Assembly (NCBI GenBank): GCA_965204045.1
Contig: CBDBDW010000002.1
Coordinates: 1,887,284 to 1,951,283, forward strand
DNA: 64,000 bases
DNA from: Gammaproteobacteria bacterium
Lineage (GTDB): Bacteria > Pseudomonadota > Gammaproteobacteria > Eutrophobiales > Eutrophobiaceae
Direction: 5' to 3'
Below, in pieces: positions 3,424 to 47,661 of this stretch. Each line of letters opens with the position of its first letter. Position 1 is the stretch's first letter. Below the pieces are notes generated by a model. That model worked only from the letters and a program-made list of their open reading frames with translations, was not told the origin of the DNA and did no database searches. Made by a program: the position numbers and the translations under genes.

Positions 3424-3520
3424 CGCCATTCCCGCGCAAGCGGGAATCCAGTGAAACAAGGTGCCGCCCATGGCGACACTTTATTCGACCGGATTCCGGG
3501 TCAAGCCCGGAAAGACAACC
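3424..3520. repeat. Family-D REP-like element (ATTCCCGCG-N-CGGGAATCCAGTG type hairpins)
   Basis: 'cattcccgcgcaagcgggaatccagtg' plus a degenerate inverted partner 'ggattccgggtcaagcccggaaag'. The same architecture forms the core of the MITEs at 21130 and 27478. Confidence 0.7.
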
Positions 3521-3527
3521 AGAGTGA

Positions 3528-3587
3528 GGGGGACAGACCCCCGCTTACAACATGCGGGGGCATGCTTTGAATCTGTCCCCTTTTTTT
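3528..3587 (+). repeat. Family-B long palindromic element followed by a T7 tract (terminator-like)
   Basis: GGGGGACAGACCCCCGCTTACAACATGCGGGGGCATGCTTTGAATCTGTCCCC forms nested stems and is followed by TTTTTTT. It lies downstream of the receptor gene on the same strand. Confidence 0.75.
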
Positions 3588-4650: not shown

Positions 4651-4665
4651 CACTTGCAGCCACTC

Positions 4666-4717
4666 GAGACAGAACCCCGCTGACAACATGCGTGGGCATA
4701 CTTTAAATCTGTCCCCC
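4666..4717 (+). repeat. Family-B long element (degenerate copy)
   Basis: 'gagacagaaccccgctgacaacatgcgtgggcatactttaaatctgtccccc' aligns with the 3528, 22425 and 23097 copies. Confidence 0.75.
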
Positions 4718-16340: not shown

Positions 16341-16449
16341 AACGACCCCCGTAAAGACAAGACCACTCGGTATTTATTCTAGTACCTTATCCTAACAGAA
16401 ATTTATGCAATGCCGCATTTTCCCTATGCAGGATAACCCGTTGATATCA

Positions 16450-16522
16450 GGGGTCAGAGTAAAATTTCCGGCGAGTTCCGGGGTCAGAGTAAGAATTTCG
16501 CCAGAAATTTTACTCTGACCCC
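16450..16522. repeat. Family-A repeat cluster (two direct arms + one inverted arm)
   Basis: GGGGTCAGAGTAAAAT, then GGGGTCAGAGTAAGAAT, then AAATTTTACTCTGACCCC. Confidence 0.9.
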
Positions 16523-16531
16523 ACATATCTG

Positions 16532-18849: not shown

Positions 18850-18920
18850 GGGTCAGAATATGTTGGGGTCAGAGTAAAATCACCACTGGCAATGCTTTCC
18901 AGGATTTTACTCTGACCCCT
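18850..18920. repeat. Family-A repeat cluster
   Basis: 'ggggtcagaat', 'ggggtcagagtaaaat' and the inverted 'gattttactctgacccc', between convergent cysC and the dehydrogenase gene. Confidence 0.9.
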
Positions 18921-18935
18921 GGATTTATCTGAGCG

Positions 18936-21099: not shown

Positions 21100-21129
21100 C
21101 AATATTCTCCTGTCAATTATTACGGAAAT

Positions 21130-21345
21130 GTAACTACTCACCCCCACTCGTCCTTCCTGCACTTCTCCTCGTTCGTCATTCCCGCGCGCCCCCCGTCATT
21201 CCCGCGCAGGCGGGAATCCAGTGAAAAAAACGTCCCGAAGGGACACGTTATAAGGTGTCGCAAGCGACCCGTTTAACAGACTGGATTCCGGCCTTCGCCG
21301 GAATGACGAAGGGAGCGCGGGACGAACAGGGGGGTGAGTAGTTAC
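21130..21345. mobile_element. 216-bp MITE with IS66-type terminal inverted repeats (GTAACTACTCACCCCC)
   Basis: Perfect 16-nt TIRs flanked by the 8-bp direct repeat ACGGAAAT (21122-21129 and 21346-21353). The interior is built of family-D hairpins. It is the exact reverse complement of 27478-27693. Confidence 0.9.
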
Positions 21346-21352
21346 ACGGAAA

Positions 21353-21805
21353 TTAATATTCAATACGGGCTGCCTTTTCCATCAGTCTGTCAATCATATC
21401 GTTAAAGGTTTCAAGTTCTCCGGCGCTTAAATCGGATAACAGTTTCGCTTCGTAATCCCTGGCAATGGGCATCACTTCATCATAGACGGACAGGCCGGTC
21501 TCGGAAAGCCTCAATATTGAACGGCGCCGGTCTTTTTCATCAATGTCCCGGTTGACGAGATGGCGTTTCAGCAGTCGAGCCACGGCGCGGGAAACCACGG
21601 ATTTTTCGATTTTTGTGCGGCGGCAGACCTCGTCCGCAGATATGTCAGGGTATTCCGCCAGGATCATCATGATACGCCACTCCGGCATGGAAATGGCGAA
21701 CTTGTCACCGTACACGGCGGCAATGGCGCCACTGATTGCATTTGACAGCAGGGACAAGCGGTAAGGGAGAAACGCTCCCAGTTTCAGGGCTTTACGGTGT
21801 TGCAT
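21353..21805 (-). CDS. MarR family transcriptional regulator
   Basis: 150 aa with a MarR winged-helix pattern ('MPEWRIMMILAEYPDISADEVCRRTKIEKSVVSRAV..L'). Divergent from hppD. Confidence 0.85.
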   Translation of the reverse strand: MQHRKALKLGAFLPYRLSLLSNAISGAIAAVYGDKFAISMPEWRIMMILAEYPDISADEVCRRTKIEKSVVSRAVARLLKRHLVNRDIDEKDRRRSILRLSETGLSVYDEVMPIARDYEAKLLSDLSAGELETFNDMIDRLMEKAARIEY

Positions 21806-21831
21806 GATAAAGAACTATAGGGTCAATGTCT

Positions 21832-21898
21832 GGGGTCAGAGTAAAATCGTCTCTGACCCTGCCATTGGCAATATTCTACAGGATTTTACTCTGACCCC
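21832..21898. repeat. Family-A palindromic repeat pair
   Basis: GGGGTCAGAGTAAAAT ... GATTTTACTCTGACCCC in the marR/hppD divergent intergenic region. Confidence 0.9.
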
Positions 21899-21987
21899 AG
21901 GGATCGCACAATCCTGGTTGACAAAAGTTGTTTGTGCAACTAATATTAGTTGTAAATGCAACTATTTATCAGGATGAGGTTGACCGC

Positions 21988-23094
21988 ATGACAGACATCC
22001 ACAACCCGATGGGCACCGACGGTTTCGAGTTCATCGAATACACTGCACCCGACCCGGAATTGCTGCGTGACCTGTTTGAAAAGATGGGTTTCCCGGCAAC
22101 GGCGAAACATCGCAGCAAGAACGTGAGCTTGCATTCCCGGGACGATATCAATTTCATCATCAACGCCGAGCCGGACAGTTTCGCCCAGCAGTTTGCGGAA
22201 CAGCACGGGCCGTCCATCTGCGCGGTCGCCTTCCGTGTGAAGGACGCGGCCAGGACCTACGCCCGGGCGCTTGATCTCGGCGCGCATGGGGTGGAGGCCA
22301 GACCCGGACCCATGGAATTGAATATACCCGCCATAGAAGGAATTGGCGGCAGCCGCGTGTACCTGGTTGACCGCTACCAGGACAGGACCATCTACGACGT
22401 GGATTTCATTCCTCTTGAACTCCAGGGGACGGACCCCCGCTTACGACGTGCGGGGGCATGCTTTAAATCCGTCCCCGGACACACCGGTTTAACCTGCGTG
22501 GATCACCTTACCCACAACGTCCGGCGCGGCAATATGGACAGGTGGGCCGGGTTCTACGAGACACTGTTCAACTTTCGCGAGTTGAAGTACTTCGATATCG
22601 AAGGGAAGCTGACCGGCCTGAAAAGTCGCGCCATGACCAGTCCCTGCGGCAAAATTCGTATTCCAATCAACGAGTCCGCGGACGATAAATCACAGATAGA
22701 GGAATACCTGAGCGAGTATCGCGGCGAGGGCATACAGCATGTCGCCCTGGCCACGGATGACATCCATGCCAGTGTGGATGCGCTACGCCGTCACGGCGTC
22801 GTATTCCAGGATACGCCTGACAGCTACTATGCAGGGGTAGACCGGCGCTTGCCCGGTCATGGGGAAGACCTGGCAGCGCTTCAACAGCGCCGCATATTGA
22901 TTGACGGCGCCCCCACGGAAGGCCATGGCATACTGCTGCAGATCTTCACCGGGAACGTGATCGGCCCGATCTTCTTCGAGATTATCCAGCGCAAAGGCAA
23001 CGACGGCTTTGGCGAGGGCAATTTTCAGGCCTTGTTTGAATCCATTGAACTGGACCAGGTCCGGCGCGGCGTCCTGACGCAGGAATTACCGTAG
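21988..23094 (+). CDS. hppD: 4-hydroxyphenylpyruvate dioxygenase
   Basis: 'NPMGTDGFEFIEYTAPDP', 'VDHLTHNV' and 'FFEIIQRKGNDGFGEGNFQALFESIELDQVRRGVL'. ATG at 21988 with a GGATGAGG RBS. Contains a 17-codon insert derived from a family-B repeat. Confidence 0.9.
   Translation: MTDIHNPMGTDGFEFIEYTAPDPELLRDLFEKMGFPATAKHRSKNVSLHSRDDINFIINAEPDSFAQQFAEQHGPSICAVAFRVKDAARTYARALDLGAHGVEARPGPMELNIPAIEGIGGSRVYLVDRYQDRTIYDVDFIPLELQGTDPRLRRAGACFKSVPGHTGLTCVDHLTHNVRRGNMDRWAGFYETLFNFRELKYFDIEGKLTGLKSRAMTSPCGKIRIPINESADDKSQIEEYLSEYRGEGIQHVALATDDIHASVDALRRHGVVFQDTPDSYYAGVDRRLPGHGEDLAALQQRRILIDGAPTEGHGILLQIFTGNVIGPIFFEIIQRKGNDGFGEGNFQALFESIELDQVRRGVLTQELP
22425..22476 (+). repeat. Family-B long element inside the hppD coding sequence (in-frame)
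   Basis: GGGGACGGACCCCCGCTTACGACGTGCGGGGGCATGCTTTAAATCCGTCCCC. Positions 22426-22476 are 17 sense codons (GTDPRLRRAGACFKSVP). Confidence 0.85.
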
Positions 23095-23096
23095 CA

Positions 23097-23147
23097 GGGG
23101 ACGGACCCCGGCTTACAGCATGCCGGGGCAGGCTTAAATCCGTCCCC
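23097..23147 (+). repeat. Family-B long element
   Basis: GGGGACGGACCCCGGCTTACAGCATGCCGGGGCAGGCTTAAATCCGTCCCC immediately after the hppD stop. It shows compensatory changes in the inner stem relative to the other copies. Confidence 0.85.
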
Positions 23148-23153
23148 GGAGAA

Positions 23154-27384: not shown

Positions 27385-27477
27385 TCGGCGCGGGACGGAT
27401 GCATTCAGATTTAGTATAATCTTCGGCGGTATTCATTCATCCCGGTAACATACCGGACTTTTCCATTAAGGAGTAAT

Positions 27478-27693
27478 GTAACTACTCACCCCCCTGTTCG
27501 TCCCGCGCTCCCTTCGTCATTCCGGCGAAGGCCGGAATCCAGTCTGTTAAACGGGTCGCTTGCGACACCTTATAACGTGTCCCTTCGGGACGTTTTTTTC
27601 ACTGGATTCCCGCCTGCGCGGGAATGACGGGGGGCGCGCGGGAATGACGAACGAGGAGAAGTGCAGGAAGGACGAGTGGGGGTGAGTAGTTAC
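27478..27693. mobile_element. 216-bp MITE, second copy (inverted relative to 21130-21345)
   Basis: A base-by-base comparison shows the exact reverse complement of 21130-21345. The left flank is GGAGTAAT and the right flank is gccgtatc, so it has no target duplication of its own. Confidence 0.9.
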
Positions 27694-27704
27694 GCCGTAT
27701 CATA

Positions 27705-27802
27705 GTTCGTCATTCCTGCGAAGGCAGGAATCCAGTGAACAAACATTCCTTATAAGGAGTTTAATTGTCTACTGGATTCCTGCCTTCGCAGGAATGACGA
27801 AC
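27705..27802. repeat. Family-D REP-like inverted pair
   Basis: GTTCGTCATTCCTGCGAAGGCAGGAATCCAGTG ... ACTGGATTCCTGCCTTCGCAGGAATGACGAAC. Confidence 0.85.
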
Positions 27803-27841
27803 CTGGCGCGATTTACGACGTTACGTATAGAATGTTGGTAA

Positions 27842-29335
27842 CTACTCGCCCCCCTTATCCTGATTGGCCGGGTTATTCTGTGGTGGTTTCTCTACCATAG
27901 TGGCGGCGTTGCCGTTGAGTGCGATGTCGATGGCGGCGAGGGGATTGTAGCCCTGGCAGGCCATGGACTGCAAGTAGCTGGAGATACGGCAGTAGGCGGC
28001 GGCGTAGTCGGGGGTGCGGAAGCAGCCTGAGACTTTCTGTTTGACCTTGGCCATGCGGATATCGCGCTCGGCGCGGTTGTTGGTGAACGGCACCTCGGGG
28101 TCGCGGGCGAAGCGGAGCACTTCGGTTTCGTACTTGATAAGGGCCTCGTGCAGGTTCTCGGCATCGGATTTGGCGATGCGCCCGCGTCGTTTGGTCTGGC
28201 GGGGCGGGGGTTTGGGGAGTTCTCTTTTGGCCTGTGTGAGGAGGGTGCGGTAGCGTGTGCGCACGGCCTTGTAGTCGGGCTCGCTGAGCGCCTTGTCGGG
28301 GTGTTCACGCACCTGTCGGCAGGTCTTGAGCAGGAGTGTTCCCATGCGCCTGGCCCAGGCATGGCCGTGGGCCTCTTCGATGAAGCGGAGGTCGCGTAGC
28401 AGGTGGCTGCCGCACAGGGCATGCTCGCAGTTGTCATAGGCAAAGTAGCTGGCCCAGCGGTCGTGGACGAGGACGCCGCGGTAGCGGGGGATGATGTTTA
28501 ACTCATCGATGGCGTCGCGCCCGCGCTGTCGATGGACACACTTCAGCGTCAGGTGGCCGGCGCTGACGCTGTGCAGCCAGTGGGTCTTACGACCGATGCG
28601 CAGGCCGGTTTCGTCCGCGTGCAGCACGGGCTCGGCGAGCAGGCGTGTCACCGCGGCGGTCTCCCACCCGGCCAGGGCCTCGTGCAGGCGTGTGAGCCAG
28701 GCCAGCAGGGTGGCCTCGGCGAGTGTGCGTCCGGTCAGCGCCGCGAGGGTCTGTGCGGTGCGCCGGAGCGAGAGCATCTGGGCAGTCAGCAGGTGGGTGG
28801 CGAACGCCACGATACCGTGGCCGTACTGCAAGGGCCCCGGCATGTCCTCGGGGAACCGGCCGCGGGTCTCGGTACGACAACGCGGACAGGTCTTGACCTC
28901 GGCCTCGACCGTCAACTCACGCGTCTCGAAGACGATATCGACCTGCACGCGCCGCTCGTGCTCGTGCGGACTGACGTTGGTGAGTGCGTGTCCGCAGGCC
29001 CGGCACTCGGTGACCGGCGCGGTGCGCGTCTCAACCACCAGACGGTTGGCGCTGCCGTGGGCGGCGCCCGCCCGCGGGCCCTTGCCTTTGGCGCCAGGGC
29101 GCCCGCGCGCAGTCTCGTCCGTGCCAGTCCGGGAACTCGGCAGGCCGGAGTTCTGTGACCCCTTCGGCGTGGTCCTCTCCATGAACACCGCCAGCAGCAA
29201 CTCGAACAACAGCAGCATCGCCTCAAACAGGGCGCGGCCCTCGGGGGTCATCCTGCCGTCCGCGCACAGCGTCGCAAAGCGCGCCTTCAAGGCCTCGAAC
29301 TCCGTGCGCAACGAGGCTTTGTTTACCGTTGCCAT
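27842..29335 (-). CDS. IS66 family transposase (TnpC-type DDE)
   Basis: 497 aa. Zn-finger 'CRACGH...CPRC', 'HADETGLRI', 'CGSHLLRDL' and 'TNNRAERDIR'. The stop codon lies inside the left TIR. Confidence 0.85.
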   Translation of the reverse strand: MATVNKASLRTEFEALKARFATLCADGRMTPEGRALFEAMLLLFELLLAVFMERTTPKGSQNSGLPSSRTGTDETARGRPGAKGKGPRAGAAHGSANRLVVETRTAPVTECRACGHALTNVSPHEHERRVQVDIVFETRELTVEAEVKTCPRCRTETRGRFPEDMPGPLQYGHGIVAFATHLLTAQMLSLRRTAQTLAALTGRTLAEATLLAWLTRLHEALAGWETAAVTRLLAEPVLHADETGLRIGRKTHWLHSVSAGHLTLKCVHRQRGRDAIDELNIIPRYRGVLVHDRWASYFAYDNCEHALCGSHLLRDLRFIEEAHGHAWARRMGTLLLKTCRQVREHPDKALSEPDYKAVRTRYRTLLTQAKRELPKPPPRQTKRRGRIAKSDAENLHEALIKYETEVLRFARDPEVPFTNNRAERDIRMAKVKQKVSGCFRTPDYAAAYCRISSYLQSMACQGYNPLAAIDIALNGNAATMVEKPPQNNPANQDKGGE

Positions 29336-29339
29336 GGCC

Positions 29340-30017
29340 TCACTCCACTTCCACCGCCATCATCGCCGCCAACACCGCCAGGCGCTCCGCCGCCGGCAGC
29401 GCCCGGTAACGCCGGCCCCAGTTCGCCGCCTTGCGCTTGACCTGCTGGCGATGGGTGAAGTTGCGCCCCGCATACCCGGCCCAGAACACCCGGTCCGGCT
29501 CGAAGTTGAACCACACCCGCTCGGTCACCACCCCCGCCTGGTTCATCACCTGTAACGACACACGGCGCCAGCCCGACAGCCGCTCGTCATACAACGCCGA
29601 CGGATAGCCCGACACCATCACCGCACAGGGCAACCGCTTGAGCAGCGCCAGCAATGCCTCGTGGTCACCCTCGTCATAATCATGACGGTAACGCCGACCC
29701 GACTTGCGCGTGCTGTGCAAATATGGCGGGTCGCTGTATACCAACTCCGTGCCGTCAAACGGAAAATCCGCCAGAAACCGGTGGCAACAACCGTGTACCA
29801 GTTCCACCGGATAATCGCACTCAAACGCCGACAGCGCCCGCCCATCGATGTCAATCCCGATGTTGCGCAGCGCCGCCGGCTTGCGCCGCATGATGGCCCC
29901 GCCGCCCAGGTGCGTCTCAATGTACACACTGTGCGGCGGCATCAGCGCAATCAACGGCTGGCACAGCCCCGTCGTTGCTTTCGAACCGAGATACGCATTC
30001 CCCATGGCGCCTACCAT
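29340..30017 (-). CDS. D12-class N6-adenine DNA methyltransferase (Dam-like)
   Basis: 225 aa. 'YLGSK', AdoMet motif 'YIETHLGGGAIM' and catalytic 'VYSDPPY'. It ends 4 nt before the transposase ATG. Confidence 0.75.
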   Translation of the reverse strand: MVGAMGNAYLGSKATTGLCQPLIALMPPHSVYIETHLGGGAIMRRKPAALRNIGIDIDGRALSAFECDYPVELVHGCCHRFLADFPFDGTELVYSDPPYLHSTRKSGRRYRHDYDEGDHEALLALLKRLPCAVMVSGYPSALYDERLSGWRRVSLQVMNQAGVVTERVWFNFEPDRVFWAGYAGRNFTHRQQVKRKAANWGRRYRALPAAERLAVLAAMMAVEVE

Positions 30018-30105
30018 AGCGCCACAAAACTATTGTGTCAAGCGCTCCTTGCCTGCAAATTCAGGTAGAATTATCGGGTAGGGGGTGAGTAGTTACGGAG
30101 TAATT

Positions 30106-30474
30106 ATGATTGGTTATGTAACAATTGGTACTAACGACCTGGAGCGCGCAGCCGCCTACTACGATGCATTACTTGGAGAAATTGGTGCAGCAAGAGCGCT
30201 TGAACTTGAACGTCTGGTTACCTGGAGTTCCGGCGAGGGCTCGCCTTTATTTGGTGTAATCGAGCCGTTTGACGGGAATCCTGCAACACCGGGTAATGGC
30301 GCGATGGTCGCCCTGGCAGTGGACAGCAAAGAAGCGGTGGATAGATTGTACGAGAAGGCCCTGGAACTGGGAGGCACAGATGAAGGTGCGCCTGGAGAGC
30401 GCATGCCGGGTTTTTATGCCGCTTATTTTCGAGACCTCGACGGAAACAAGCTCGATTTTTTCCATATGGGTTGA
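30106..30474 (+). CDS. VOC/glyoxalase family protein
   Basis: 'MIGYVTIGTNDLERAAAYY...YFRDLDGNKLDFF'. I prefer the ATG at 30106 with GGAG (30097-30100) over the track's GTG at 30085, which lies inside the IS TIR. Confidence 0.75.
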   Translation: MIGYVTIGTNDLERAAAYYDALLGEIGAARALELERLVTWSSGEGSPLFGVIEPFDGNPATPGNGAMVALAVDSKEAVDRLYEKALELGGTDEGAPGERMPGFYAAYFRDLDGNKLDFFHMG

Positions 30475-47269: not shown

Positions 47270-47380
47270 TACAGTGTTGCAGGTACCAATAAACTACCAG
47301 CCTGGTGTTACTGTGTCAAATTACAGTGTTCAACCGGGTGTGATTCAAAGTGTGGTCAAATCGGCGCATGTATCCAACGT

Positions 47381-47412
47381 TGTCATTCCGGGCTTGACCC
47401 GGAATCCAGTCG
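47381..47412. repeat. Family-D REP-like hairpin
   Basis: 'tgtcattccgggcttgacccggaatccagtcg'. It supplies the last codons and the stop of the VapB-like ORF. Confidence 0.75.
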
Positions 47413-47661
47413 ATAAACCTTCCTTATATACCGGTCCCGATCTTCCCGTAAAAGTTCAACGCTATCAGTTTGAATCCTGTCGGTCATACCGGAAATCTGT
47501 CGCGTCCGTTCCCGAAAGTCAGCAATATTGATGCGACGGTCGGCCCGTTGCGTCAGCATATAACGCACTTCTGCTTCGAGCGAACGCTGGTTTGTCCTGG
47601 CTTGCGCTTTTAACGTCTCGATCACGTTATCATCAAGGTTGCGGATGGTTAAGGTTCCCAT
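47383..47661 (-). CDS. FitA/VapB-like RHH antitoxin, orphan, with repeat-derived C-terminal extension
   Basis: 'MGTLTIRNLDDNVIETLKAQARTNQRSLEAEVRYML'. No PIN gene lies downstream. The tail '...RLDSGSSPE*' is read from the family-D repeat. Confidence 0.6.
   Translation of the reverse strand: MGTLTIRNLDDNVIETLKAQARTNQRSLEAEVRYMLTQRADRRINIADFRERTRQISGMTDRIQTDSVELLREDRDRYIRKVYRLDSGSSPE

Follow-up and report, generated by a model that had tools for sequence, protein, structure and literature searches.

The stretch of DNA analysed here (the window, 64,000 nucleotides of a gammaproteobacterial genome) contains a composite block of 2,619 bp (27478-30096) made of three parts: a 216-bp MITE (27478-27693), a spacer of 144 bp (27694-27837), and a complete IS66-family insertion sequence (IS) of 2,259 bp on the minus strand (27838-30096). 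The block is bracketed by two copies of the octamer GGAGTAAT, one on the left at 27470-27477 and one on the right at 30097-30104. The right copy also serves, through its GGAG, as the ribosome-binding site of the gene downstream. This gene, on the plus strand (30106-30474), belongs to the Glyoxalase/VOC family (PF00903 at 3e-8); it lies outside the element, and its 5′ region is the target of the insertion. As a separate observation, the insertion of the composite cuts the glyoxalase-family gene off from its upstream transcript.

The IS holds two open reading frames only, both on the minus strand. The second gene in the direction of transcription (27842-29335) encodes a DDE transposase of 497 aa with a CxxC...CxxC zinc-finger region. 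It matches the IS66 profiles NF033517 (2.2e-74, 250.8 bits, cut-off 180) and PF03050 (4.6e-41, 141.5 bits, cut-off 23.1). The terminal inverted repeats (TIRs), inner at 27838-27853 and outer at 30081-30096, have the sequences GTAACTACTCGCCCCC and GTAACTACTCACCCCC, which agree at 15 of 16 positions and share the pattern GTAACTACTC[G/A]CCCCC, and the string GTAACTA[C/T]TC is kept at the ends of 30 related elements. An earlier, preliminary description had given the IS GTAA-initiated TIRs of 16 bp; the GTAA start and the coordinates stand, whereas the IS pair itself is imperfect and the perfect 16/16 pair is the one formed by the outer ends of the composite. An IS of 2,265 bp in ERZ25072367, 86 % identical to this one, has the same boundaries in its ten copies, nine of which are flanked by perfect 8-bp duplications. 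Duplications of this size also flank four of seven copies in a second lineage and one element in L025, and altogether 14 of the 19 related elements or derivatives checked have perfect ones. Both the family and the ends first assigned to the element are thus borne out, and the element at 27838-30096 is an intact member of the IS66 family. Exact-sequence look-ups with the transposase, with the methylase described below (225- and 221-aa forms), and with P0010 and P0002 returned no record.

Canonical IS66 elements, such as IS66 and IS679, have the gene order tnpA-tnpB-tnpC. The present IS shares with them the transposase family, the type of ends, and the size of the duplication, and in both cases an accessory gene lies upstream in tight coupling with the transposase gene. 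However, the accessory gene is unrelated: neither TnpA nor PF05717 (TnpB_IS66) was found in the IS, and the upstream frame has a methyltransferase fold instead. Since there are only two frames and the upstream one is of this kind, the element is of the tnpA/tnpB-less type and not a canonical IS66. This subgroup, which we take to be the ISBst12 group of ISfinder, has the IS66 DDE transposase, GTAA TIRs, and 8-bp duplications and likewise lacks tnpA and tnpB; the difference here is the additional conserved Dam-related methylase gene, upstream of the transposase and in the same orientation. Among plasmid-borne proteins, the best relatives of the transposase (37-40 % identity) are those of single-gene IS66 elements of Planococcus, Acaryochloris, Leptolyngbya, and Deinococcus. 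The plasmid collection gave 211 records with a transposase match, including Bacillus (53) and Geobacillus (5), and none above about 40 % identity.

The methylase-like gene occupies 29340-30005 on the minus strand, within an open reading frame that extends to 30017. Its stop codon lies 4 nt ahead of the transposase ATG, which has a GGAG 7 nt upstream. Two starts are available, an ATG at 30017 giving 225 aa and an ATG at 30005 giving 221 aa. The shorter form is the likely one, as M5 is invariant in the homologues, most of these have 219-223 aa, and the −10 element of the promoter overlaps the upstream ATG. Of the original reading of a 225-aa protein, the 4-nt spacing holds and the length probably does not. 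Just upstream of the methylase start, and still inside the IS, lies a promoter-like site, TTGACA-17 nt-TATGGT (30013-30041, minus strand), kept across the clade as CTTGACAnCATAG-N10-CTATGCTG and enclosing an inverted repeat ATAG..CTAT. This conserved sigma-70-like promoter, within the end nearest the methylase, seems to serve both IS genes.

The predicted protein has the motifs YLGSK (X), HLGGGA (I), and DPPY (IV) of N6-adenine DNA methyltransferases and ends in a basic two-helix hairpin (187-224). Among 33 sequences of 39-76 % identity, DPPY (96-99), G38, H29, and H119 are invariant and G11, K13, E34, and G40 nearly so; DPPY and the AdoMet motifs are likewise conserved across 77 sequences. 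It had been described as a D12, Dam-like enzyme. This is supported at the level of the family by profiles and by the modelled fold: PF02086 matches 72 of 77 relatives at E<=0.01 (best 2.1e-11), the family profile matches DpnM at 4.7e-5, and a phrog_56 “DNA methyltransferase” match reaches 7.5e-26. The window protein taken alone falls below the curated cut-offs (PF02086, 16.6 against 22 bits; TIGR00571, 22.5 against 114.85). A single-sequence search of the PDB gave no match, and a profile of close homologues only one with an E of 0.37. A first structure model from 36 close homologues was unusable (pLDDT 49.9) and was superseded by an AlphaFold model (pLDDT 84.6) from the 77-sequence alignment, to which the phage and plasmid clade also contributes; in a Foldseek search of the PDB, this model is closest to E. 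coli Dam (E 6.6e-7, TMq 0.55), with Mcbe1 and DpnM also among the top matches.

In comparison with Dam, DpnM, and T4 Dam (D12-class, alpha-group), the common features are the LGGGA of motif I, the DPPY of motif IV followed by an SGY strand, and the Rossmann fold. Motif X is Y-x-G-S-K here and W-A-G-G-K there, and the protein is smaller (221 aa against 259-284) with an extra basic helical hairpin at the C-terminus. Moreover, motif I and DPPY lie only about 55 residues apart, whereas Dam and DpnM have about 140 in between (in DpnM, motif I is near residue 45 and DPPY at 194), which indicates that the Dam-type target-recognition domain is missing; in this point the D12 assignment does not hold for the window protein. 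The tetranucleotide GATC is absent from the window IS (6.8 expected) and occurs once in a related IS (4.9 expected). GATC avoidance was considered as a clue to specificity and was rejected on the count over 23 related ISs, 354 observed against 345 expected. We consider it probable that this protein is a working N6-adenine DNA methyltransferase.

The association of the two genes is not peculiar to this copy. In metagenome loci, which were retrieved by pattern with alignment A3 (alignment A2 being too diverse), an IS66-type transposase follows directly downstream of the methylase homologue in 54 of 65 cases, and in two assemblies each of the 20 copies examined has the layout of methylase, 4 nt, and transposase. 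The methylases keep 63-76 % identity where the transposases have merely 22-56 %. At a few loci (L058, L079, L093, L100) the methylase stands without the transposase, and some copies lie in or beside restriction-modification loci. Throughout a large and mainly environmental IS66 clade, this layout is the norm. The arrangement had been proposed as undescribed for IS66, and a literature comparison, ISfinder lying outside it, found no account of an IS66 with a methylase gene; the group is apparently undescribed, and what must be corrected is any impression that the present copy is unique.

Outside IS elements, the protein is closest to small methylases encoded by P2-like phages and prophages and by conjugative plasmids, the latter providing 127 of 157 plasmid matches. 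They include the small “DNA methylase” of the Salmonella phages SEN4/SEN5, SW3, and a Hafnia prophage and the IncP-1 protein upf31.0, at 43-54 % identity. These proteins have the same family, size, and motifs and align over nearly the full length; the phage and plasmid genes stand alone in accessory regions, whereas here the gene sits in the operon of an IS and is present in several copies per genome. From these similarities we infer an origin of the IS methylase from this group of small P2-like phage and conjugative-plasmid enzymes.

For the role of the methylase, the reading that we prefer, tentatively and by analogy, is that of a co-factor: the IS would keep the enzyme to methylate a short motif in its own promoter or ends, the candidate being the conserved palindrome ATAG-N10-CTAT. 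Transposase expression or the use of the ends would then follow the methylation state, a self-contained analogue of Dam control. Transposition of IS10, IS50, and IS903 is controlled by host Dam. The likeness is one of function: adenine methylation in the promoter or ends could gate transposition in both cases, here at a conserved palindrome in the sole promoter; the difference is that the methylase there belongs to the host, whereas the present element would carry its own. A stronger form, which we regard as unlikely, makes the methylase an obligatory transposition co-factor that replaces TnpA and TnpB across a branch of IS66 and provides a private epigenetic switch. Here the adenines of the promoter palindrome ATAG-N10-CTAT or of the GTAAC ends would be methylated, and the transposase would be expressed, or the ends used, only while the DNA is hemimethylated directly after replication, with no dependence on host Dam.

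The main alternative, and a serious one, is that the enzyme is an orphan taken from phages or plasmids which acts in anti-restriction, or as an epigenetic passenger, to the benefit of the host or of the replicon that carries it, and plays no role in transposition. The nearest relatives outside the IS group, on P2-like phages and conjugative plasmids, speak for it, as self-protection is the usual explanation for such genes there; so do the copies in or near restriction-modification loci and the existence of solo methylase genes. However, retention throughout a clade is not expected of a dispensable passenger. The methylase gene opens the sole operon, with 4 nt between it and the transposase gene, and surpasses the transposase in conservation; moreover, an IS has no means of its own to pass between cells, and protection on entry would help it only indirectly.

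A further possibility, held to be quite improbable, is that the protein no longer methylates but assists the transposase by binding DNA or as a structural component, standing in for TnpA/TnpB. It would account for the want of a recognisable target-recognition domain and for the scores under the curated thresholds of the Dam models, and in the structure model the basic C-terminal hairpin could bind DNA. Against this, thousands of diverged members keep DPPY and the AdoMet motifs X and I with little or no change, a pattern that only selection for catalysis would lead one to expect.

The MITE at 27478 has perfect 16-bp TIRs (outer 27478-27493, inner 27678-27693), and its interior consists of REP-like hairpins without a notable ORF. 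A second copy, 100 % identical and in inverted orientation, lies at 21130-21345 and is flanked by its own perfect 8-bp duplication ACGGAAAT (21122-21129 and 21346-21353). The MITE ends equal the IS ends (16/16 TIRs), and these 16 bp are the only sequence common to both elements. In the 64 kb, the TIR pattern has six exact matches against 0.03 expected, accounted for by the two MITEs and the one IS. In the public run X1, the terminal k-mers of the MITE reach about 200x genome depth. Being small, non-coding, and repeated, with the TIRs of an autonomous IS and a duplication of its own at 21130, the element is a MITE amplified by the same type of transposase as that of the IS. The spacer that separates the two elements has unique ends, gccgtatcatag... 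and ...cctggcgcgatttacgacgttacgtatagaatgttg, and contains a REP-like inverted repeat with 38-nt arms (27705-27742 and 27765-27802), related to repeats within the MITE and elsewhere in the window.

Neither element has a duplication of its own at this place. The flanks of the IS alone are gaatgttg and ggagtaat, unequal as already noted in the preliminary description, and those of the MITE at 27478 are ggagtaat and gccgtatc. The octamer GGAGTAAT, in agreement with that description, occurs just twice in the window on both strands, each copy touching the outer end of the MITE or of the IS. The predicted empty site ttccattaaGGAGTAATtatgattgg, with a single GGAGTAAT and no spacer, is present in the related genomes L011, L018, and L013, none of which has two GGAGTAAT sites. 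It is also found in contigs of seven public runs: as a skip of 2,627 bp with 8 ambiguous bases in four DNA runs (X2, X3, X7, X52) and with 7 ambiguous bases in three metatranscriptomes (X46, X10, X48). The transcripts of the relatives span the empty site upstream of the glyoxalase-family gene; in these metatranscriptomes, transcripts were seen only over the empty site, and clear IS transcripts were not found. The empty site with one GGAGTAAT in relatives and run contigs means that the entire 2,619 bp entered as one insertion, as had been proposed, and two independent insertions fail to explain the structure because the spacer is missing from the empty site. Since relatives and most sampled populations are empty and both MITE copies are identical, the insertion is evidently recent and strain-specific.

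Of the junctions, the one between left flank and MITE was found again in the independent data of run X1, at 10.6x of 17.2x; the sample is a strain mixture, and this run holds both the filled and the empty form. The MITE-spacer, spacer-IS, and IS-right flank junctions were not recovered in the contigs of any public run, which is uninformative because Logan contigs break at each repeat; independent confirmation of the structure thus covers the left junction only. The unique right part of the spacer runs, at single-copy depth, into TTATATCTACGC... and not into the IS in both X1 and X2, and in X1 the spacer-to-TTATATC junction has a roughly full depth (16.2x against 17.2x for the genome). A continuation into other chromosomal DNA in two runs fits a donor locus. 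A locus retaining the IS, in the order MITE-spacer-IS, was not found, the continuations in X1 and X2 being without it, and a metagenome scan with a unique 26-mer from the spacer gave 0 matches. Run X25 was considered as a carrier of the composite and dismissed, as only another IS copy with a flank ending in ..TGTTG is present there; in X51, X52, and X53 the IS or the empty site is present, and the composite was not found.

These observations bear on whether the path through MITE, REP sequences, and IS might be an assembly chimera that joins different loci or strains, so that no single molecule has the structure. The strain-mixed sample, the fact that only the left flank-MITE junction was seen again, with the spacer-IS and IS-right flank junctions missing, and the other DNA beyond the spacer in X1 and X2 would all agree with it. 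Such a chimera, however, needs two switches, the second of which requires an IS or MITE end truly abutting GGAGTAAT and the right flank; the sequence common to MITE and IS is just 16 nt, too short a stretch to deceive modern assemblers, and the megabase-scale or complete chromosomes among related assemblies of the group suggest long reads. Moreover, the spacer contig of X1 begins exactly 30 nt before 27838, as expected with a k-mer branch into the IS. A chimera has accordingly very little chance of being the explanation. The idea that MITE and IS inserted independently side by side, with GGAGTAAT matching by coincidence or as a pre-existing repeat, could invoke the frequent clustering of same-family MITEs and ISs and the common ribosome-binding motif within the octamer, but it is practically negligible, as relatives with one GGAGTAAT and no 144-bp spacer show that the spacer came along with the elements, neither element is self-duplicated here in contrast to 14 of 19 other copies checked, and all eight letters would agree by chance at two given positions with a probability of about 1.5e-5, the octamer being found nowhere else in the 64 kb.

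The sequence of events was most probably the following. In an ancestor, the MITE and the IS stood 144 bp apart elsewhere on the chromosome, and the transposase paired the outer end of the MITE with the outer end of the IS. The MITE-spacer-IS block then went into GGAGTAAT, between the hairpin/5′ leader and the start codon of the glyoxalase-family gene, with duplication of the 8 bp. In composite transposons such as Tn5 and Tn10, and in MITE-bounded units, two inverted compatible ends move the intervening DNA. The present block resembles them in that one duplication brackets the unit, the inner ends have no matching duplication, and the site is empty in relatives. It differs in its arms, a non-autonomous MITE and an autonomous IS, and in its geneless cargo of 144 bp of REP-containing intergenic DNA. 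For the explanation as a whole, which combines the IS66 element, the MITE, the composite event, and the proposals on the methylase, we estimate a probability of about 0.78.

Insertion sequences are normally reduced to what movement needs. The retention of a methylase in thousands of IS66-type elements suggests that DNA methylation is part of the lifestyle of this branch, in which it could serve self-regulation or protection. Methylases carried by a multi-copy IS would add a mobile and copy-number-variable layer to the methylomes of the hosts concerned, namely, marine and sediment bacteria and symbionts of sponges and corals. The composite itself is a clean natural case, with a known empty site, of a MITE and an IS jointly moving the DNA between them, and such cooperation would be a first step toward the capture and spread of genes by pairs of this kind.

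A pattern search of the 64-kb window finds six matches to GTAACTACTCRCCCCC, against 0.03 expected, and single pairs of them bound three elements: two MITEs of 216 bp (21130-21345 and 27478-27693) and an IS of 2,259 bp (27838-30096). The two MITEs are 100% identical and lie in inverted orientation, with perfect terminal inverted repeats (16/16), and lack coding capacity; ACGGAAAT flanks the copy at 21130 on either side. They are MITEs generating 8-bp duplications. The IS has inverted ends matching at 15/16 positions and two co-oriented minus-strand ORFs, a methylase of 225 aa (29340-30017) and a transposase of 497 aa (27842-29335) that starts 4 nt past the methylase stop. The flanks of the IS are unequal (gaatgttg and ggagtaat), as are those of the adjoining MITE (ggagtaat and gccgtatc). 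The 8-bp sequence GGAGTAAT occurs only twice in the whole window on both strands, at 27470-27477 and 30097-30104, abutting the left end of the MITE and the right end of the IS. The preliminary description of the region matches the sequence exactly.

The window also contains other repeats. REPs of the type ATTCCC-N8-GGGAAT are present inside the MITE, in the spacer between MITE and IS (27694-27837) and at 3424-3459, with a related variant at 47379-47413. An intergenic repeat family, GGGGTCAGAGTAAAAT..., often forms inverted pairs (348-377, 1011-1040, 16438-16529, 18858-18922, 21820-21906, 59444, and 62598), and a second consists of a 52-nt palindromic GGGGACAGA...TCTGTCCCC unit (3529-3580, 4665-4716, 22425-22476, and 23097-23148).

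For both NF033517 (2.2e-74) and PF03050 (4.6e-41), the transposase scores above the curated threshold. By transposase, ends, and duplication the IS belongs to the IS66 family, but it differs from canonical IS66 in that neither tnpA nor tnpB is present within 27838-30096. The closest plasmid-borne transposases (37-40%) come from IS66 elements with a single gene in Planococcus, Acaryochloris, Leptolyngbya, and Deinococcus, the ISBst12-type subgroup; the 211 plasmid records with a transposase match include 53 from Bacillus and 5 from Geobacillus. A 91% identical methylase (P0004) leads to an ENA assembly (ERZ25072367) with at least 10 copies of a 2,265-bp IS of 86% DNA identity. The GTAACTACTC... 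ends and the methylase-4 nt-transposase layout are common to 10/10 copies, and the 8-bp duplications are perfect in 9/10. In a second lineage, whose methylase (P0097) is 78% identical, this layout recurs at at least 10 places, with perfect 8-bp duplications in four of the seven scorable copies. Because these related copies end alike and carry 8-bp duplications, the IS boundaries and the 8-bp rule proposed from the window are borne out. Full-length copies with unmatched 8-bp flanks were also observed (1/10, L008; 3/7, L108, L111, and L112), as expected from recombination between copies or adjacent rearrangements.

Taken alone, the window methylase matches PF02086 weakly (E 0.007, below the cut-off) and TIGR00571 likewise weakly, and a PDB sequence search with it gave no match. 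The family is large, with 6,428 clusters at 50% identity for E<=1e-3 and 2,784 for E<=1e-10, and 72 of 77 relatives match PF02086 (best 2.1e-11); phrog_56, "DNA methyltransferase", matches at 7.5e-26. DPPY is invariant among members of 39-76% identity, as are H29, H119, and G38 of motif I, and motif X (G11, K13), E34, and G40 are nearly so. A 77-sequence profile retrieves DpnM at 4.7e-5, followed by E. coli Dam and T4 Dam. The AlphaFold model from the same alignment (pLDDT 84.6, pTM 0.78) has as its top PDB fold matches E. coli Dam (E 6.6e-7, TMq 0.55), Mcbe1, and DpnM. Motif I and DPPY are separated by about 55 residues here versus about 140 in Dam and DpnM, so the target-recognition domain of Dam is missing, which accounts for the modest TM-score; the C-terminus is instead a basic two-helix hairpin (187-224). 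The methylase is thus akin to the Dam family in motifs, profile, and fold, but its score is below the curated threshold and it has no alpha-group recognition domain. We regard it as a minimal Dam relative that, given the conservation of its motifs, is likely to be active.

The pairing of methylase and transposase is conserved well beyond the window. It is kept in 20/20 copies from the two assemblies. Metagenome loci that extend 700 nt or more downstream from a methylase homologue of 63-76% identity number 65; in 54 of them an IS66-type transposase immediately follows on the same strand, and several others have a truncated one. The partner transposases at those loci are only 22-56% identical to that of the window (e.g., L076, L091, L047, and L051); this greater divergence indicates that the methylase is the more conserved half or moves between IS66 lineages. 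Other arrangements are also seen. At L094 (1039-2382) an IS4-type (DDE_Tnp_1) transposase ORF comes after the methylase, and at L058, L079, L093, and L100 no transposase is nearby, an Ogg-like glycosylase being next in L058. The identical protein P0097 lies on contigs of one metagenome (ERZ25070917, L104-L113) ranging from 8x to 352x, a very unequal coverage which implies that its IS is apparently present in several genomes there. Two of these copies lie within restriction-modification loci, one beside hsdS/hsdM (L106) and one splitting an N6_N4_Mtase gene (L107). A 236-aa protein of the representative library (P0127) joins the N-terminal half of the methylase to the C-terminal end of an IS66 transposase and probably derives from an internally deleted IS copy.

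Expression of the pair appears to depend on one conserved site. A promoter-like TTGACA-17-TATGGT (30041-30013, minus strand), the sole such site in the IS by consensus scan, directly precedes the invariant M5 start (30005). Thirty elements, compared at the methylase-side ends in L001 and L025-L096, have in common the end GTAACTA[C/T]TC and the promoter CTTGACAnCATAG-N10-CTATGCTG. The start codon falls about 7 nt past the -10 box, so the mRNA would be nearly leaderless. Between the -35 and -10 boxes lies an inverted repeat, ATAG..CTAT, which may serve as an operator or as a switch sensitive to methylation. GATC is absent from the window IS (0 versus 6.8 expected) and scarce in the 86% identical IS (L001 4922-7186; 1 versus 4.9), whereas 23 more distant elements hold 354 versus 345 expected. 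This scarcity is lineage-specific or due to chance and, not being general in the clade, carries no information on methylase specificity.

We favour, with a probability of about 0.4, a role of the methylase as a co-factor or in self-regulation, because its gene comes first in the sole operon, shows coupling to that of the transposase, is retained throughout the clade, and occupies the place of TnpA/TnpB in canonical IS66. The main alternative, judged only slightly less probable, is a protective orphan methylase of phage or plasmid descent. Non-IS relatives of 43-54% identity do form two such groups: the small "DNA methylase" encoded by P2-like phages and prophages (Salmonella SEN4/5 and SW3; a Hafnia prophage, with the gene next to gpA) and conjugative-plasmid genes including IncP-1 upf31.0 (127/157 plasmid hits are conjugative). 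The IS-borne clade itself, at 60% identity or more, is absent from all plasmid and phage records searched.

With the upstream hydrolase as query and one genome for each species, we retrieved orthologous loci. In three relatives, two at 97-98% aa identity (L011 and L018) and one at 86% (L013), ...CTTTTCCATTAAGGAGTAATTATGATTGG... comes after the hydrolase, with a single GGAGTAAT and neither TIR nor spacer, so that the empty site predicted beforehand does exist; a fourth relative has GGAGTGAT at this locus. The same joint, a skip of 2,627 bp with 8 ambiguous bases, is present in contigs of four public runs (X2, 213x; X3; X7; X52, 444x) and likewise in three metatranscriptomes, where 7 bases are ambiguous. 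The filled form was seen in X1 only, where a 57-nt contig (10.6x) spans the left flank to the MITE, beside the empty form. The unique right part of the spacer (27804-27837) has single-copy depth (X1, 16.2x; X2, 266x) and in both runs adjoins TTATATCTACGCAAACC..., not the IS; the spacer is thus a piece of a different chromosomal locus. In most cells this home locus is without the IS at GAATGTTG and looks as expected of a donor site before IS insertion. In X1 the spacer contig begins exactly 30 nt ahead of 27838, a hallmark of k-mer branching where spacer and IS meet. Public-run contigs, which end at repeats and lose minor branches, yielded none crossing the MITE-spacer, spacer-IS, or IS-right flank junctions and none with an IS-bearing donor locus. 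That the composite is an assembly artefact, to which these three unrecovered junctions would lend some weight, is very unlikely; it would still need an IS or MITE end genuinely abutting the right flank. In X1 and X2, from sponge- and coral-associated communities, k-mers of the MITE termini are about 200 times as deep as the flanks, against about 8-12 times for the IS, so the MITE family greatly outnumbers its autonomous partner.

Two separate insertions of MITE and IS are ruled out, since the empty site is free of the 144-bp spacer. We strongly infer that the composite arose by one transposition, from a donor with MITE and IS 144 bp apart. By a simple route, the outer end of the MITE would have been paired with the outer end of the IS, from a donor predicted to contain GCCGTATC-MITE-GCCGTATCATAG... 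and ...GAATGTTG-IS-GAATGTTGTTATATCTACGC. The outer ends form a perfect inverted match (16/16, versus 15/16 between the IS's own ends). Movement of the DNA between two compatible ends is textbook composite behaviour, and this pair with its documented empty site is a neat example and no new principle.

GGAGTAAT includes the ribosome-binding site of the glyoxalase-family gene that follows (ATG at 30106), and the right copy keeps this site intact. Metatranscriptome contigs (X46, X10, and X48) cross the empty site, joining 27426-27469 to 30097-30200; in relatives, transcripts of this gene thus come from upstream of the insertion site and pass a hairpin with a T-run (27442-27465). The composite splits the gene from that co-transcribed region, now 2.6 kb off.

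The literature searched gave no description of IS66 elements in which a methylase is a constant part, and such a clade may already be curated in ISfinder. The chief interest lies in the conserved methylase-transposase module, more than in the composite.
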